IMG/VR virus record: IMGVR_UViG_2541047117_000001
Span: 88,841-152,840 of that record
Strand: one strand, 5' to 3'
Source: a virus
Lineage: Duplodnaviria; Heunggongvirae; Uroviricota; Caudoviricetes
Length of the DNA: 64,000 nucleotides
The notes under the pieces were generated by a model. It did not search any database. It was not told where the DNA came from and saw only the letters and a list, made by a program, of their open reading frames with translations. Position 1 is the stretch's first letter; each line of letters opens with the position of its first letter. The position numbers and the translations under genes were made by a program. Below are positions 16,174-35,207 of this stretch, piece after piece.

Positions 16174-16446
16174 TATATTGGTGGCAATATTTGAGCGCCT
16201 ATTACTTAATGTGATTTCATTTTAAACTGTAAAAATGGATGCCTAATGCACACTAAAAATATAGGTGTGTAACTCCTATAATAGATGCACAATACATAGT
16301 GTGCGCTAGCGTTAGTGCATATATGTGCCTGCGCCTATACTTGTGTGCATTGTGGTGCATATATTGGTGGGAATATATGAGTGTCTATTACTTAATGCGT
16401 TTTCATTGTAAATCATAGAAATGGATACGAACCGAGCGCCAAAAAT
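16174..16446. repeat. Imperfect direct repeat of about 87 bp, copies 16174-16260 and 16360-16446
   Basis: Both copies read TATATTGGTGG.AATAT.TGAG.G.CTATTACTTAATG....TTCATT.TAAA....AAATGGAT...AAAAAT. Confidence 0.85.
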
Positions 16447-17703: not shown

Positions 17704-17736
17704 TTGACATAACTATTAGTTATCATTTATGATAAC
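17704..17736 (+). promoter_or_regulatory. sigmaA promoter with 18-bp operator
   Basis: TTGACA...GTTATCATTTATGATAAC (17719-17736). Confidence 0.85.
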
Positions 17737-17765: not shown

Positions 17766-18053
17766 GTGGAACGTCAAATGGATTTAAGAGAAGTAAAGAA
17801 AAAGATTAATGAATCAAGAGTGAGTAAATTACAAGTCGAACTTTTCAATTGGAATGGAGACGAAGACGAAAGCGGTTTTGATTTGATGGTAAACCTTTTG
17901 GACAGTGATGGGGATTTAATTAAAGATATGGTTGTAATTGAATACAAGCAAGAGGAAGAAAAACAGGCACAAGCCGAAGCGAAAAAGATTCATAAAAAAT
18001 TATCCGAACATTATACTTGGATGGAAGTAAAATACACGGAGACACACGAATAG
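17766..18053 (+). CDS. Hypothetical protein
   Basis: GTG start after GAGGAGATGTTTAAAA. Confidence 0.8.
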   Translation: MERQMDLREVKKKINESRVSKLQVELFNWNGDEDESGFDLMVNLLDSDGDLIKDMVVIEYKQEEEKQAQAEAKKIHKKLSEHYTWMEVKYTETHE

Positions 18054-18066
18054 GAGGAAACCGAAA

Positions 18067-18393
18067 ATGATACAATTAAGAACTCAAGTGCATGTAATTA
18101 ACGACGAAAAATTTATTTACAAAATTTCACAGTTTCGTGAACTACAAAGTAGTGAACTAGGTTTTACATATGATTTGGATTTGGTGGCGGGATATGATTA
18201 TATAAATCCTGATGAAAACGACATACAAGGCTTTGTGAGCGCTGAGAACTTCACAGACGAGGTTCAAGGTGATATATTAACCGTTTACCCTCTGTCGGAG
18301 TCTTTAGGCGAGAGATTAGAAGAGTTAGGCTACAAAGTGATAGATATTACAAAGTACAAAATTCATAAATCAACTGTCGAAACTGGGGAATAA
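18067..18393 (+). CDS. Hypothetical protein
   Basis: RBS AGGAGG; its stop codon lies in the stem III loop of hammerhead 1. Confidence 0.8.
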   Translation: MIQLRTQVHVINDEKFIYKISQFRELQSSELGFTYDLDLVAGYDYINPDENDIQGFVSAENFTDEVQGDILTVYPLSESLGERLEELGYKVIDITKYKIHKSTVETGE

Positions 18394-18441
18394 TTCCCAG
18401 TCTGTGAAATAGTGGCTCTATTCATACTGATGAGACAAGCC
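18375..18441 (+). ncRNA. Type II hammerhead ribozyme 1
   Basis: TGTC-GAAA-stem III-GTC cleavage triplet-stem I (loop TGGCT)-CTGATGA-GACA; loop GGCT pairs with downstream AGCC. Confidence 0.9.
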
Positions 18442-18478
18442 GAAAAGAAAGTGATTTCACAAATGTAAAAAATAATGA

Positions 18479-18511
18479 TTGACATCTGCAATTGTTATCA
18501 TTTATAATAAC
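18479..18511 (+). promoter_or_regulatory. sigmaA promoter with 18-bp operator
   Basis: TTGACA-18-TATAAT; operator at 18494-18511. Confidence 0.85.
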
Positions 18512-18534
18512 TGTAGATTCAAAAAAATAAAAAG

Positions 18535-18891
18535 GTGGAAATTAAAATGAATTTAAACGAATTTAACAAAGTCGATTCTTTGAGAGTTAAAGAAACTGGG
18601 GAAATCATGAGCCACGAGGAATTTTACACAAATGTTGTAAATGGAATTGGTTTACAGAATTTAATTGGTTTACTACCTGCTACGAAAGAAGAAATTAAAT
18701 TATGTCTTGAAAGAGACGAAAGTTTAAATGGAATTAAATTGAAATACTGGGATGAACGAGCAACAGAATTAAAATTCTATATTGGTAGAATTGGCGTTAA
18801 AAGTATTTCATTGTCACAGGCGGTATGTGTGCTAAAACAAACGGCTCGAATGTATGCAAGAGACTTGGAACAATTGAGTTTTGAAATTTAA
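18535..18891 (+). CDS. Hypothetical protein
   Basis: ORF track; start may be the ATG at 18547. Confidence 0.8.
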   Translation: MEIKMNLNEFNKVDSLRVKETGEIMSHEEFYTNVVNGIGLQNLIGLLPATKEEIKLCLERDESLNGIKLKYWDERATELKFYIGRIGVKSISLSQAVCVLKQTARMYARDLEQLSFEI

Positions 18892-18914
18892 ATAACAGGT
18901 GTAAAAAATAATGA

Positions 18915-18947
18915 TTGACTTTTGAATTAGTTATCATTTATAATAAC
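18915..18947 (+). promoter_or_regulatory. sigmaA promoter with 18-bp operator
   Basis: TTGACT-18-TATAAT; operator at 18930-18947. Confidence 0.85.
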
Positions 18948-18985
18948 ATTAGGTAAAAAAACAACTATTATACAGAAAAGAGGAA

Positions 18986-19309
18986 ATGAAAATGATAGTA
19001 GCACATTTAATTGGCGGAAATGCAATCAAAGGGATTATAGACGGGACTGTAATTATCAACGGTGAACAATTGGAAACTAGTTACGGAGAGTTAGCGTCTG
19101 TATGTGGAAGTATTTCGCTTGGTGATTTGGATACAACTAGAAGTGCGGAGAGAATGGAAAGGGATTATATAGAACTGGTTAGGGAACATGATGAAGATTT
19201 AGACGAGGATTTTGTTCTTGACAATCATTTAACGGCTGAGATTTGTTATAGCGAATATGAAATTGATATAGAGAAAAAAACGCTAACACTAACCATCGGT
19301 ACGTATTAA
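18986..19309 (+). CDS. Acidic hypothetical protein
   Basis: ORF track, RBS GAGG. Confidence 0.8.
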   Translation: MKMIVAHLIGGNAIKGIIDGTVIINGEQLETSYGELASVCGSISLGDLDTTRSAERMERDYIELVREHDEDLDEDFVLDNHLTAEICYSEYEIDIEKKTLTLTIGTY

Positions 19310-19331
19310 TAATAAGTGTAAAAAATAATTA

Positions 19332-19364
19332 TTGACAAAAATATATGTTATCATTTATAATAAC
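19332..19364 (+). promoter_or_regulatory. sigmaA promoter with 18-bp operator
   Basis: TTGACA-18-TATAAT; operator at 19347-19364. Confidence 0.85.
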
Positions 19365-19390
19365 ATTAGGTTGATGAAAGGAGAATAAAA

Positions 19391-19633
19391 ATGGTAATTG
19401 AATTTAAAGAAGCCGTGGAAATGCTAGAAGATGGAATGGAGGTTGTTCTTGAGTGTGACGGTCATGATTATGAAATTTCCGATGCTGAAAATTGGATTGG
19501 TGGCGATGCTCATGATGGATACATAAGCCTTGTTTTGGGAAGCGTGGTCTATGGAAGTGCGGAAACCGCTCTGAGGGAATCTATCGACTTTCTAGAAAAA
19601 AGTGGAAAAAGTGTTACAATTAAAGATTCATAA
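19391..19633 (+). CDS. Acidic hypothetical protein
   Basis: ORF track, RBS AAAGGAG. Confidence 0.8.
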   Translation: MVIEFKEAVEMLEDGMEVVLECDGHDYEISDAENWIGGDAHDGYISLVLGSVVYGSAETALRESIDFLEKSGKSVTIKDS

Positions 19634-19671
19634 CAAATGAAATAATTCTTTTAACAAATGGAGGTAGGGAA

Positions 19672-19887
19672 ATGACTTTCAAAGAGCAAATTGTAGAATG
19701 GAAAAAAATTGTAGGAAATGAAATTCGTAAAAATAAAGATATAATCAATAATTGGGGATTGGATGGAAAAGTATTTTTTCAACTTGATGGAACTGTGATT
19801 GTAAGAAATGAATATTCAACAGAGGATATAATTTTCGAAAATACAATAACACCATTTAAAGAATGGAAAGAGAAAAAGTGTATTTAA
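19672..19887 (+). CDS. Hypothetical protein
   Basis: ORF track, RBS GGAGG. Confidence 0.8.
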   Translation: MTFKEQIVEWKKIVGNEIRKNKDIINNWGLDGKVFFQLDGTVIVRNEYSTEDIIFENTITPFKEWKEKKCI

Positions 19888-19897
19888 ATTTTAAATA

Positions 19898-20205
19898 CAA
19901 ATGTAAAAAATAATGAAATTAACTATTGATTTCTTGTAGTTTGTATGCTCCGTTCATGAATTCGTTATCTAATATGATAACACATAACAAGAGGTAAAAG
20001 CCCATACAAGGCAAAATAAGGCGTCTGATGGCTATGTGTAATGGTTCGAAGTGATAACAAAGTGAAAATTATATGAAAATCAAAAATAATAAACTATTTT
20101 CACATAATGCATTGACAGTGGACTATATTTTTAGTAAAATATTAAATGTAAGGTAGTTGAATAAACGCCTTACAAAAATCTAAAGGAAAAAGGTGTTTAA
20201 AAATG
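19898..20205 (+). repeat. Intergenic regulatory cassette, copy A
   Basis: Collinear with 21102-21388. Confidence 0.75.
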
Positions 20206-20349
20206 AATGAAGATTTTTTCGGGAATTTACTTATTTTATCAGGATTGTTCGCTCCACTTATTACAGTAGGATTAGTTGAAATAATTAGAAATAAAATAAG
20301 AACTGGTGAATTTTTCCCGATTGATACAAGTGAAAAAAATAATGATTGA
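20203..20349 (+). CDS. Small single-TM protein (48 aa)
   Basis: Not in track. MNEDFFGNLLILSGLFAPLITVGLVEIIRNK... after AGGTGTTTAAAAATG. Confidence 0.7.
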   Translation: MNEDFFGNLLILSGLFAPLITVGLVEIIRNKIRTGEFFPIDTSEKNND

Positions 20350-20378
20350 CATATACATTTGTTATCATTTATAATAAC
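20346..20378 (+). promoter_or_regulatory. sigmaA promoter with 18-bp operator
   Basis: TTGACA-18-TATAAT; operator at 20361-20378. Confidence 0.85.
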
Positions 20379-20403
20379 AAATGTAGGGAAGACGTTCCCA
20401 CAA

Positions 20404-20469
20404 GTCGAAACGGGACTTTCGAGTCCCGTCCATGTAAAGTGGTTCTTTACATGCTGATGAGACAAACCA
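20404..20469 (+). ncRNA. Type II hammerhead ribozyme 2
   Basis: GTC-GAAA-CGGGACT(TTCG)AGTCCCG-TC-CATGTAAAG(TGGTT)CTTTACATG-CTGATGA-GAC; loop TGGTT pairs with AACCA. Confidence 0.93.
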
Positions 20470-20499: not shown

Positions 20500-21117
20500 A
20501 TGACAGACAATTTAACAGTAGCAATCGAAAAACCAGTTTTAAGAAATGAATTTATTCTAATCAAAGATGATATCACAGGCGAACAAAAAGGCGGAAACGC
20601 TTATAACCTTGATAACAAATGTCGTGTAGTACTTTTTGAAACTTCTTTCCGTGCAATTGCGATTGTAGACGAAACAAAGAAAGATGGAATTTATTCTTTC
20701 GTTACAAAATATGTAAATAATAATATTTTCAGTAACATGGTAATAAACGTCCTAATTAATGGAAAGATTTACAAGCGCAAAATTATCAAATTTGAAAACC
20801 GTTTAGCGGTTCGACATAACAATGAAATTTTCGAACTTGGAGAATTTGCAAATGGATTGTATCAAGTGAGAGAGCAATTAACAAGTAACAAATTAGATGT
20901 GGTTTGGACTTTACAAAAGATAGTCGATGTCAGAATGTACCACATGAGCAAATTGTCATTGATGGATAAAAATTTAGTAATGATTCACTTTAGTAATATT
21001 CAGACATCTTACAAAAAGAACAAAGCTGAATTTTCTGAAATTGATAATATTTCTTGTGAGTGTTTAGCGGAGTGGATTGACCACGCCAAAGAAACACTTT
21101 ACAAATGTAAAAAATAA
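20500..21117 (+). CDS. Hypothetical protein
   Basis: ORF track, GGATGTTTAAAAATG start. Confidence 0.8.
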   Translation: MTDNLTVAIEKPVLRNEFILIKDDITGEQKGGNAYNLDNKCRVVLFETSFRAIAIVDETKKDGIYSFVTKYVNNNIFSNMVINVLINGKIYKRKIIKFENRLAVRHNNEIFELGEFANGLYQVREQLTSNKLDVVWTLQKIVDVRMYHMSKLSLMDKNLVMIHFSNIQTSYKKNKAEFSEIDNISCECLAEWIDHAKETLYKCKK

Positions 21118-21388
21118 TGAAAATTGCTCTTGATTTCCTGTAGGATGTATGCTTTTTGTTCTAGAGTGTTATCTAATGTGATTACACGTAGAAGGACAAA
21201 AAGCCCATACAAGGGAATCTGAGTCTTCTCACGTATATATAAATGATAACAAAGTGAAATTGAAATGAATTTAAAAAGATTCACAAAGTGCATTGACAGT
21301 GGATTGATAATTTGATAAGATATTAAATGTAAGGTAGTTGAGACGAACAACACTTACAAATAACAAAAAATGGAGATGTTTAAAAATG
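21102..21388 (+). repeat. Intergenic regulatory cassette, copy B
   Basis: Collinear with 19898-20205. Confidence 0.75.
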
Positions 21389-32059: not shown

Positions 32060-32132
32060 GCACCTATAGCTCCAATGGTAGAGCAGAGAGCTGTTAACTC
32101 TTTGGTTGGTGGTTCGAGTCCATCTAGGTGCG
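32060..32132 (+). tRNA. trnN: tRNA-Asn(GTT)
   Basis: Cloverleaf; GAGAG-CTGTTAA-CTCTT. Confidence 0.93.
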
Positions 32133-32174
32133 TCATTGTTTTTAAAGAGAAAAGAGAAAAAGGGGATAGGGATT

Positions 32175-32417
32175 ATGTTTAATAAAGATGTACACGGTAA
32201 AAGAATCAGAAAAGCTCAAGCTAAAACGCAATCCGCTCAAGAGGTATTTGTAAAAGCGATTGAAGATATTGATGCGTCTGATGAGCATTTAGATGAAGTA
32301 ATCAAAGAAGCTCAAGCTGAAATTACTAATCTACAATCCTTTGTAGAAGATGCAAAAACAAGTAAAGCTGAGAATGATGTTTTAAGAAAGAATATTCAAG
32401 GCTTAGTTAGTATTTAA
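32175..32417 (+). CDS. Small coiled-coil protein inside the tRNA island
   Basis: Start moved to MFNKD after AGGGA. Confidence 0.75.
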   Translation: MFNKDVHGKRIRKAQAKTQSAQEVFVKAIEDIDASDEHLDEVIKEAQAEITNLQSFVEDAKTSKAENDVLRKNIQGLVSI

Positions 32418-32446
32418 TATTTCGCATCCTTAGTGGATGCTTTTAT

Positions 32447-32521
32447 GGTGTATTAGTGTAGCGGTTAACACGCTAGCCTGTCACGCTAGTAGCACGGGTT
32501 CGATTCCCGTATACACCGCCA
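32447..32521 (+). tRNA. trnD: tRNA-Asp(GTC)
   Basis: Cloverleaf, encoded CCA. Confidence 0.95.
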
Positions 32522-32524
32522 TTA

Positions 32525-32600
32525 TTTCCGAGTAGACGAACTGGTAAAGTCACTAGTCTTTGAAGCTAGAGTTTGGAGGTTCGAAGCCTTCCTTGGAAAT
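32525..32600 (+). tRNA. trnQ: tRNA-Gln(TTG)
   Basis: CTAGT-CTTTGAA-GCTAG. Confidence 0.85.
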
Positions 32601-32610
32601 CGACCAAAGT

Positions 32611-32687
32611 CCATGCTTTGGAAACTAGATATTAGTTTAGTTTAGTTTAGTTTAGTCTAGTATTAGTATCTAGTTTCCAGTGTGTGG
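32611..32687 (+). promoter_or_regulatory. UAG-repeat hairpin overlapping the 5' end of tRNA-His
   Basis: 13-bp perfect arms at 32619-32631 and 32667-32679; (TTTAG)4 interior; 9 TAG triplets. Confidence 0.7.
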
Positions 32688-32748
32688 CGTAATGGTAACG
32701 CAGTGGACTGTGAATCCATGAATGAGAGTTCGATTCTCTCCATGCTGA
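32678..32748 (+). tRNA. trnH: tRNA-His(GTG), non-canonical identity (C-1, A73)
   Basis: GTGGA-CTGTGAA-TCCAT; acceptor stem CAGTGTG/CATGCTG. Confidence 0.85.
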
Positions 32749-32749
32749 T

Positions 32750-32878
32750 TGTTGGTGAGCAACATAAAAACTCAATACACATTCTAGACGTAGGAGCTAG
32801 ACGTTGACAAGCAACATAAAAACTTGAATGATGTGGACGCAGGGGAGTAGCGCCACGTAAAAAACATAACAGCTCCTT
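32750..32878 (+). ncRNA. Three tandem H-type pseudoknots (PK1-3)
   Basis: Manual pairing; compensatory stem-2 change between PK1 and PK2. Confidence 0.65.
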
Positions 32879-32881
32879 TAA

Positions 32882-32955
32882 GCCGACTTAGCTCAGCAGG
32901 TTAGAGCGGTTGCCTTGTAAGCAACAGGTCGTGGGTTCGATTCCTACAGTCGGCA
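32882..32955 (+). tRNA. trnT: tRNA-Thr(TGT)
   Basis: GTTGC-CTTGTAA-GCAAC. Confidence 0.95.
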
Positions 32956-32957
32956 TT

Positions 32958-33044
32958 GACGTTTTTACCGAGTCCACGTCGTTAATCTACGATTCGGTAC
33001 GCAAAGCGGTAGGTTCTGCTTGACCTATGATATCAAAACAAGCA
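32958..33044 (+). ncRNA. Two tandem H-type pseudoknots (PK4-5)
   Basis: GACGT/ACGTC + TACCGAGT/ATTCGGTA; GTAGGT/ACCTAT + TGCTTG/CAAGCA. Confidence 0.7.
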
Positions 33045-33052
33045 TCCATTAT

Positions 33053-33202
<150 letters not shown>

Positions 33203-33210
33203 TCATTTAT

Positions 33211-33284
33211 GAGGAGATGGTGAAGAGGCTTAACACGGTAGGTTGCAACCCTATTATTCGTGGGTTCAAATCCCACTCTTCTCT
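33211..33284 (+). tRNA. trnC: tRNA-Cys(GCA)
   Basis: GTAGG-TTGCAAC-CCTAT; U73. Confidence 0.92.
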
Positions 33285-33298
33285 TAGTTTTGTAGCAT

Positions 33299-33370
33299 GT
33301 GGTATTGGTCTAATGGCTATGATTTCTGACTTCCAATCAGAAGATGAGAGTTCGATTCTCTCATACCACA
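33299..33370 (+). tRNA. trnG: tRNA-Gly(TCC)
   Basis: TCTGA-CTTCCAA-TCAGA. Confidence 0.9.
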
Positions 33371-33379
33371 TCATTTTTT

Positions 33380-33453
33380 ACCCCTATCGCCAAGTGGATT
33401 AAGGCAACGGGCTTCTATCCCGTTATTCGGGAGTTCGAATCTCTCTAGGGGTG
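33380..33453 (+). tRNA. trnR: tRNA-Arg(TCT)
   Basis: ACGGG-CTTCTAT-CCCGT. Confidence 0.92.
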
Positions 33454-33578
33454 TTAGAACTTAATCAGTTTCTTTCTAATGGAAGGCATGGGTCATGCCC
33501 TAATCCAAATATTCCATGTGAAAGTTTTATCTTCGAAAGGCGTTCGAATAAAAAACCAAATGAACCTTTAAGCAATAT

Positions 33579-33663
33579 GGCAGGGTAGTCTAGTGGCAAT
33601 GACAGGAGACTGTAAATCTCCCCTCAATCGAGTTCGTAGGTTCGAGTCCTACCCCTGCCACCA
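33579..33663 (+). tRNA. trnY: tRNA-Tyr(GTA)
   Basis: Long variable arm, CCA. Confidence 0.95.
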
Positions 33664-33666
33664 TAT

Positions 33667-33737
33667 GGAGTTTTAGTTTAACTGGCAAAACACTTGGCGT
33701 AGTCAAGGCGTAATCGGTTCGAGTCCGATAAACTCCT
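33667..33737 (+). pseudogene. Aberrant tRNA with a 5-nt anticodon loop (CGTAG)
   Basis: Intact acceptor, D and T arms; stem CTTGG/TCAAG closes only 5 nt. Confidence 0.7.
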
Positions 33738-33750
33738 CCCTCCCTTCAAT

Positions 33751-33822
33751 GCATCCTTAGTTTAAAGTGAAAACGGACTGCTTAAAAGCCGTTGTATGTG
33801 GGTTCGAACCCCACAGGGTGCA
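33751..33822 (+). pseudogene. Aberrant tRNA with an irregular anticodon arm
   Basis: GCATCCT/AGGGTGC acceptor, TTCGAAC T-loop, no canonical 5-bp/7-nt anticodon arm. Confidence 0.65.
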
Positions 33823-33827
33823 TCTTT

Positions 33828-34640
33828 ACTTCGAGGTTTGGCTCTGATAGCGTAACGTGAGTTGCGTAAAGGCAATGTGACAAGTTGCCACCGTGTAAAC
33901 GGTCAATCCAAGCACAATCGACACTCCTAAGTCATCATTATGATGGTGATAGTTTCATGAAATTACGGAGAAAACGCTACGAGGTCAACGATGTAGTAGC
34001 AGTATTGGTTAGCACCAATACACTCCACGCTAAGGTAATGAAGAAGCGAGAGTGAATCGAGAGATTGTACAGTCCGAGTTTAACAAGCAAGGGCGACAAT
34101 CAGTAATGAAAGAGAAATGGTCGAAAGCCAAAGTAACTTTGATTACGGTTTGAGTAGCTAGTTGGCGAAAGAACATGAAGGCGTGTGGTATTTTGTAATC
34201 CAAAAGATTACGAAGCCACTGAGACAGCACGTCTTCTGTCACACAGACTAATAAGATGTTAGATATGGTAATCCAAAGAGATGATTAAAATATGACTAAT
34301 TAAAATTCATACATACAAGCGAAAGCCTGTCTCCTTACATTACGAAGGCAACCTAAATCCCCACAAGAAGTTGAATGGGGAGCATGATGAGTTCGCAAAA
34401 CTCTGATTGTTTGATAGTGAATTGCATGGTTCTCTTAGCAGAGATTAATAGCGTGGCAACGTTGACAGAATCGGAACTATTGAGTAGTAGTGTAACAGGT
34501 CGCAGAATGCACAGCGACTAATTAAAACGTGCGGTTGTGAGTGATACGTAGTTGCTCCAAAAGAGGATTACGTGGATAAGAGAGGAAGATATAATCTTTC
34601 TAAAGGCACTCAATGCGAGGTTTAATCTCAGCCTACGCAA
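33828..34640 (+). ncRNA. GOLLD-like giant structured RNA (about 810 nt)
   Basis: No credible ORF, dense GNRA-capped stems, lies in a tRNA cluster. Motifs GAGTAGC...GAAAGAACATGA...TGTGGTATTTTG...CAAAAG...CCACTG and 3' TAATCTCAGCCTA match GOLLD as I recall it. Boundaries approximate. Confidence 0.7.
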
Positions 34641-34676
34641 GACCAGTTCTGTTTTTACGGGATTGGATTTTATCTT

Positions 34677-34765
34677 GGAGAGGTACTCAAGTGGCTCAAG
34701 AGGCTTCCCTGCTAAGGAAGTAGGACGCATTGTGCGTTGCGTGGGTTCGAATCCCACCCTCTCCA
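34677..34765 (+). tRNA. trnS: tRNA-Ser(GCT)
   Basis: CTTCC-CTGCTAA-GGAAG, long variable arm. Confidence 0.93.
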
Positions 34766-34769
34766 TTAA

Positions 34770-35125
34770 AGGTGGACTAAGCCTACAAATTAGTCAGGTG
34801 CAAAGGCAACTGCATCATTCCCGAATGGGGGACGATTAAAAATACCATTATCTATCCCGATAAGAGATTGTCTTATCTGATTGCTATCATCGCAGTCACC
34901 GTTGAAGATATCACAACGGTAGACATTGGAAAGTCGCTCTGTTTCTCATATTGAAGGCAAGTGTGGGAGCGATAGAGTTCGTTGACGATGGTTTATGCGA
35001 ACATTATAGACAACTAAATATGAAAAAGTGCAACCTCACATGAGTTTCTTGCACTTCTTATGTGAGTTTTTTCAAATGTATGTAGGTTTCTACCCTAAGC
35101 GTTCCTACTAAATATAAACGGTAAG
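34770..35125 (+). ncRNA. Candidate structured non-coding RNA(s)
   Basis: About 10 consecutive hairpins or pseudoknot-like pairings; no ORF. Confidence 0.45.
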
Positions 35126-35132
35126 GTGACAT

Positions 35133-35207
35133 GCGCCTTTAGTGTAATTGGCAACACAGAAGTCTCCAAAACTTCTATTCTAGGTTCGAGTCCTAGAGGG
35201 CGTGCCA
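35133..35207 (+). tRNA. trnW: tRNA-Trp(CCA)
   Basis: GAAGT-CTCCAAA-ACTTC, encoded CCA. Confidence 0.95.

Follow-up and report, generated by a model that had tools for sequence, protein, structure and literature searches.

The closest described counterparts of the ribozyme reported here are the clustered hammerhead ribozymes of prophages, which cleave in vivo as well as in vitro (Perreault et al. 2011, PMC3088659). In that work the pseudoknot was required for fast cleavage, the processing of long transcripts at gene boundaries was proposed as the role of the clustered copies, and splicing or circularization was raised as a possibility, with ligated products going undetected. Type II hammerheads of Desulfovibrio vulgaris are active in vivo, as established by cyPhyRNA-seq (PMC8782182), and the biological role of the phage hammerhead ribozyme family is still unproven (PMC6765202). 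Here, we describe a type II hammerhead, HH1, in a 64,000-nucleotide stretch of phage DNA (the window), together with a second copy, HH2. The window corresponds to positions 88841–152840 of an IMG/VR phage record of 152,852 bp with direct terminal repeats (G000), the portal of which shares ∼40% identity with those of large Bacillus siphoviruses, Tsamsa and vB_BcoS-136 among them.

HH1 resembles the type II ribozymes of RF02276 and of Perreault et al. in topology, core, 3-bp stem II, the pairing of a UGGYU loop I with an ARCCN tail and its location in phage DNA, as well as in being present in more than one copy flanking a short gene block. It differs from them in its A/U-rich stems, with a score 6 bits below the gathering value, in an upstream reading frame that reaches the stem III loop, and in the presence of a strong promoter, not an RBS alone, between the ribozyme and the next gene. 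The prophage-like D. vulgaris ribozymes share the class of HH1 and its proximity to phage-like genes, whereas they reside in a G+C-rich bacterial chromosome and no coding overlap has been reported for them. The hammerhead of the sister phage G001 (L002:1934–2004) and the typical intercistronic members match HH1 in family, in pseudoknot and in directly following a gene; in G001 a gap of 4 nt separates the stop codon from the ribozyme, and translation can start again ∼25 nt past the tail, an arrangement that is the family norm, whereas the stop of HH1 lies 18 nt further in. Judged from its sequence, HH1 is a new, A/U-rich, sub-threshold member of the known phage-borne family RF02276, it occupies a type of location already familiar for such ribozymes, and its unusual trait is an ORF that reaches the stem III loop.

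The elements of HH1 are listed in Table 1. Along the RNA they follow the order stem II 3′ strand, GAAA, stem III, UC, stem I, CUGAUGA and stem II 5′ strand; stem I and stem III are each capped by a loop and stem II is open, which is the type II topology. The first-pass annotation had described a complete type II core, with GAAA at 18379–82, cleavage after 18402 and CUGAUGA at 18427–33, and all three are present. Stem III, as read from the sequence, pairs 18382–89 with 18394–18401 and contains one G–U among its eight pairs; U16.1 is 18401 and C17 is 18402. The A/U-rich stem I is formed by 18403–08 with 18421–26, then by 18410–12 with 18418–20, and the 5′ strand of stem II (GAC, 18434–36) is followed by one A and then the tail. 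An optional fourth stem II pair, U18375–A18437 in HH1, is no feature of the family, as 39 of 134 copies form a pair there. The loop I pseudoknot that had been noted as GGCU with AGCC is present, with its extent amended: it comprises five pairs, between UGGCU (18413–17) and AGCCG (18438–42), so that the element ends at 18442, not 18441.

Table 1 Features of the two hammerheads and their surroundings (positions are those of the window)
Feature	Position	Strand	Basis
HH1, complete type II hammerhead with pseudoknot tail	18375..18442	+	sequence, descriptor scans, RF02276 31.2 bits, own model R1 93.4 bits
HH1 stem II 3′ strand GUC (C11.1 = 18378), paired with GAC 18434–36	18376..18378	+	sequence
HH1 core GAAA (G12 A13 A14 A15.1)	18379..18382	+	sequence; invariant in 135 distinct family members
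HH1 stem III hairpin, 8 pairs, loop AUAA 18390–93	18382..18401	+	sequence, folding
HH1 predicted cleavage site, C17 (18402)/U1.1 (18403)	18402..18403	+	hammerhead consensus
HH1 stem I hairpin: 6 bp, bulged A18409, 3 bp, loop UGGCU 18413–17	18403..18426	+	folding
HH1 core CUGAUGA (C3–A9)	18427..18433	+	sequence and family alignment
HH1 3′ tail AGCCG, pseudoknot with loop I	18438..18442	+	sequence and family covariation
Gene, phrog_3653, function unknown, 108 aa	18067..18393	+	PHROG E 2.3e-32, residues 3–104
HH2, type II hammerhead	20404..20469	+	RF02276 43.2 bits; descriptors; predicted cleavage after C20430
Nearest strong promoter upstream of HH1	17704..17733	+	consensus scan 11/12; repeated early-promoter family
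Sigma-A-type consensus promoter of gene 18547–18891, 37 nt 3′ of HH1	18479..18508	+	12/12 consensus matches
Cassette of gene remnant, HH1, promoter, RBS and ATG, conserved in both G000 and G002	18352..18549	+	alignment, G002 sequence and ORFs

HH1 qualifies as a hammerhead by the criteria of Perreault et al. 2011: the conserved core (C3 U4 G5 A6 N7 G8 A9, G12 A13 A14, A15.1, U16.1, H17) is found in full. There is no mispair next to the core, as G18434–C18378, U18403–A18426 and A18382–U18401 are all paired, and the short stems are free of multiple mispairs, the single irregularity being one bulged A (18409) in the 9-bp stem I. The pseudoknot, with five pairs between loop I and the bases just 3′ of stem II, exceeds the minimum of four expected of a type II hammerhead. 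In minimum free energy (MFE) folding, which does not model the pseudoknot, the hammerhead fold comes out at −17.3 kcal/mol, less stable by 2.7 kcal/mol than an alternative (−20.0 kcal/mol) in which GGCU and AGCC form a plain helix and part of CUGAUGA is paired. Because the pseudoknot is left out of the calculation, the non-MFE character of the hammerhead fold was set aside as evidence against HH1.

Descriptor searches set HH1 and HH2 apart from chance. A strict descriptor that includes the pseudoknot matched the window twice (HH1 and HH2), against no match in 1000 shuffles, and a relaxed one that requires the core and three helices also gave two window matches (HH1 and 20404–20463), against a mean of 0.07 per dinucleotide shuffle. 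Descriptors for type I, II and III hammerheads found none besides these two in the whole 152,852-bp genome. The first-pass annotation had proposed the Infernal Hammerhead_II model as a check: an 83-nt slice containing HH1 aligns to RF02276 over the full model (1–66) with 31.2 bits (E = 3e-05) and no non-canonical pair flagged, and this score falls ∼6 bits short of the gathering score of 37 bits. HH2, likewise searched as an 83-nt slice, gives a full-length model match without mispairs at 43.2 bits, above the gathering score; with slices of this length the search filters are lenient. Rfam searches of the whole window (at the gathering threshold), of a 401-nt stretch (E ≤ 10) and of the whole genome (with RF02276) returned nothing. 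We attribute this silence on the larger stretches to a filter effect, since the slices score 31.2 and 43.2 bits and even the above-threshold HH2 was missed. The low score of HH1 itself arises because its A/U-rich stems meet a G+C-rich model consensus, and no feature is missing.

To place HH1 within its family, a seed pattern was used in which the core and ARCC were fixed and the stems and loop I left free. This core-plus-tail pattern matched at least 120 stretches of viral contigs, many of which are recognized by RF02276. The model R1, for which HH1, HH2 and one hammerhead from a related phage served as input, recovered 159 copies in 100 sources. Among 135 distinct phage copies, 92.4% of pair cells are paired, against 67.5% in shuffles and 28–44% in slid controls, and the covariation score is 0.576 against 0.145; both sets of figures are to be read with the caveat that the family alignment was fitted to model R1 itself. 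The pseudoknot helix is 90% paired in the family, and its variable pair (90–126) is C–G in 97 copies and U–A in 26, with five exceptions; HH1 carries C–G and HH2 U–A. H17 is C in 132 of the 135 members, the core columns are invariant or nearly so, and stem II has 3 bp. The stem I geometry of HH1 (10/5/9, including an additional 5′ nucleotide) belongs to one of the two classes that dominate the family (51/135), its loop I sequence UGGCU is the commonest (56/135), and its 20-nt stem III hairpin falls in the family range of 14–41 nt. Two weak R1 matches, at G000:31064–31102 (E = 0.34) and G001:121720–121779 (E = 0.17), were taken as noise. R1 matched none of five cultured relatives (Flapjack, pW4, Izhevsk, vB_BcoS-136 and Tsamsa), and when the HH1 cassette was compared by BLAST with 50,697 phage records, the RBS region was the sole match.

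HH1 lies within an early run of small plus-strand genes, each preceded by a near-consensus promoter. The promoters belong to one repeated family that occurs seven times between 16751 and 20375. In it an A-rich tract lies upstream of TTGACA, a spacer of 18 nt leads to TATAAT, and the −10 box is overlaid by an inverted repeat, GTTATC…RATAAC; there is about one promoter per small gene. The nearest strong promoter upstream of HH1 would transcribe 17766–18053, then 18067–18393, then the ribozyme, and the promoter downstream of it, one of the seven copies, is conserved together with HH1 in the sister phage G002. Between 15000 and 23000 no terminator-like site was found on the plus strand, against nine strong plus-strand promoters. 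A ribozyme is present in just two of the approximately nine promoter units of the region. The same part of the genome holds other repeated DNA: a non-coding block of ∼140 nt occurs twice, at 19896–20035 and 21100–21238 (D6 and D14; 75–87% identical), with a different promoter-like core, and direct repeats of 87 nt (16174–16260 and 16360–16446; 77% identical) occupy a stretch without a long ORF. Elsewhere in the window, a GOLLD RNA (RF02032, 204.6 bits) is located at 34176–34634, inside an array of at least 15 tRNA genes (32060–35204).

The loop of stem III holds the UAA stop codon of the upstream gene (18391–93), which ends 9 nt ahead of the predicted cut after C18402; both points had been made in the first-pass annotation and are upheld. 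The reading frame enters the ribozyme by 17 nt, and the 5′ half of HH1 encodes the last six codons and the stop, and the resulting tail, TVETGE, is encoded by the 3′ strand of stem II, GAAA and the 5′ strand of stem III. Homologues in phrog_3653 end at a conserved …KIH[KQE], after which they carry 0–4 variable residues or an unrelated extension; TVETGE falls past this conserved end, and its residues are not conserved in the homologues. In the closest homologue, that of G001 (83% identical), there is no ribozyme at the corresponding place. A split-gene origin was considered and rejected, as the C-terminal extension of the G001 homologue shows no similarity to the gene downstream of HH1. The frame runs 17 nt into HH1 because the ribozyme directly follows the conserved end of the gene, and the UAA in the stem III loop would just happen to be the first in-frame stop. 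The stop-codon overlap looks like a tolerated accident, not a regulatory device.

The position of stop codons across phage hammerheads provides the context for this overlap. The fetched viral loci yielded 178 distinct type II hammerheads. In 85 of them the 3′ end of an ORF of 60 aa or longer falls between −10 and +6 nt relative to the ribozyme 5′ edge, against 4.4% of random positions drawn from the same loci, and the upstream stop is usually no more than ∼6 nt from that edge. Where both neighboring genes are close, the median gap is 2 nt upstream vs 18 nt downstream (Wilcoxon p = 3e-4). The norm in the family is a stop just before or in stem II, whereas that of HH1 lies in stem III, and among the 177 others there is one other credible case of a stop in the stem III loop. 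This case, L108:11830–11905(−), is on an unrelated viral contig, where the UAA of an upstream ORF of 137 aa falls within the loop of stem III, with the offset and frame of HH1; the ORF has no PHROG match and the gene is putative. An apparent deep overlap in a further locus, L120, was rejected, the hammerhead being doubtful with an oversized stem I.

The near-identical sister phage G002, whose portal is 99% identical to that of G000, carries both ribozymes and separates HH1 from the overlapping gene. At its HH1 locus (L006 1395–1592(−)) the body of the gene is deleted, and only its last 23 nt are kept, directly after the stop codon of the upstream gene; no ORF enters HH1 in G002. The ribozyme differs by one change in 74 nt, U18375 to G, at the dispensable fourth pair of stem II. 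The structure is accordingly conserved in relatives, on the basis of one close relative with the locus and with no covariation within the HH1 orthologues. HH1 is maintained without the overlapping ORF, because G002 has lost the gene body yet keeps the ribozyme, the promoter and the RBS. The gene that follows the ATG of the cassette also differs between G000 and G002, and, from this arrangement of the sequences, the repeated promoter cassettes resemble junctions at which genes have been shuffled.

HH2 offers a comparison within the same genome. It sits in a 5′ leader, between a promoter (20346–75) and the gene at 20500–21117, ∼30 nt before the start codon, and no ORF runs into it. In G002 it is identical, with no changes in 68 nt. 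The 3′ halves of HH1 and HH2 are 82% identical (repeat family D12), stems I and III as well as the pseudoknot differ between them by compensatory changes, and the two are probably paralogues. HH2 differs from HH1 in lying 3′ of its promoter, in being free of an ORF, in scoring above the Rfam threshold, and in that its hammerhead fold is the MFE structure (−22.9 kcal/mol).

Our preferred reading, to which we assign a probability of roughly 80%, is that HH1 is a functional, pseudoknot-stabilized type II hammerhead that would cut read-through early transcripts, and that the overlap with the gene is tolerated. Transcripts from upstream promoters (the nearest at 17704) would run through 17766–18053 and 18067–18393, beyond which there is no intrinsic terminator. 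After the polymerase has cleared 18427–42 (CUGAUGA, stem II and the tail), the RNA would fold and cut itself after C18402. This would give the upstream message a 3′ end that lies in the stem III hairpin, 9 nt past the stop codon, and carries a 2′,3′-cyclic phosphate; the downstream RNA would start with a 5′-OH at the base of the stem I hairpin and would be uncoupled from the unit driven by the promoter at 18479. To judge from ribosome footprints, the 9 nt left behind the stop codon ought to be enough for translation of the cleaved mRNA to terminate normally. The RNA ends and the effects on message stability are deduced from the known chemistry of the hammerhead class. The earlier proposal that the cut defines the 3′ end of the upstream mRNA is plausible, there being no intrinsic terminator between the gene and the next promoter, and it stands as a prediction.

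The depth of the overlap could instead mean that translation gates the ribozyme, with ribosomes on the last six codons and the stop unfolding stems II and III, so that cleavage and the fate of the message would depend on translation. The ORF truly covers the 3′ strand of stem II, GAAA and the 5′ strand of stem III, and the independent copy in L108 shares the frame and stem III loop stop position of HH1. A ribosome footprint extends ∼15 nt from the first P-site base, which would place a ribosome with UAA in its A site out to ∼18402, the cleavage site. In G002, however, HH1 is retained although the gene is gone and no ORF reads into it, homologues do not share the encoded tail, and deep overlap is rare, with one other credible case among 177. 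Cleavage is also irreversible, so a passing ribosome could merely delay the cut, and transcription in Bacillus is reported to outrun translation; if this applies here, folding would usually precede the first ribosome. Translational gating is thus unlikely, and the claim of the first-pass annotation that translation could modulate the folding of HH1 is not supported by the comparison with G002, with the G001 homologue that has no ribozyme, and with the stops of the family, which lie elsewhere. A functional stop position, in which the cut falls at the leading edge of the terminating ribosome to leave a minimal, ribosome-sized 3′ end with translation-gated cleavage or decay, would imply two or more origins (HH1 and the copy in L108), and we regard it as distinctly unlikely.

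It is very unlikely that HH1 is a decaying or inactive relic, kept merely because it belongs to a recently shared cassette. Its sub-threshold Rfam score and non-MFE hammerhead fold would be in keeping with decay, and G000 and G002 are so close that conservation over 74 nt is weak evidence alone. Yet the core, the three closing pairs and the pseudoknot are all intact, loop I and the stem I geometry are those most typical of the family, the low score comes from A/U-rich stems set against a G+C-rich model with no mispair, and the sole difference between the two phages falls on the dispensable fourth pair of stem II. Most improbable of all is that HH1 acts through the fate of its cleaved ends, either as a substitute terminator, its 5′-OH end admitting an RNase J1-type 5′–3′ exonuclease that dislodges the polymerase, or by providing ligatable ends, such that the 2-kb RNA between HH1 and HH2 is joined or circularized. 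The lack of intrinsic terminators in the region would suit the former, and cuts at HH1 and HH2 would bracket 18403–20430. The genome encodes two proteins of the RNA_ligase family (PF09414), in ORFs of 294 and 433 aa outside the window (G000:19149–19625(−), 95.9 bits; G000:37238–37774(−), 30.4 bits), and splicing or circularization was among the possibilities raised by Perreault et al. (PMC3088659). Against this, stem I hides the 5′ end of the downstream fragment, RtcB, which joins a 2′,3′-cyclic phosphate to a 5′-OH directly, is absent from the genome, and Perreault et al. (PMC3088659) could not detect ligated products; termination at HH1 would in any case achieve little, because a strong promoter lies immediately downstream.

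HH1, read as a functional hammerhead with a tolerated overlap, adds an A/U-rich example from a Bacillus-type phage to the ribozyme family. Rfam scans with default filters miss such copies, even one that scores above the threshold, so hammerheads of low-G+C phages are probably under-counted. The G000 and G002 loci, with and without the overlapping gene, constitute a natural experiment, which argues that the ribozyme works independently of the gene. For the family as a whole, the bias of ribozymes toward abutting the stop codon points to selection for forming the 3′ end of the upstream message.
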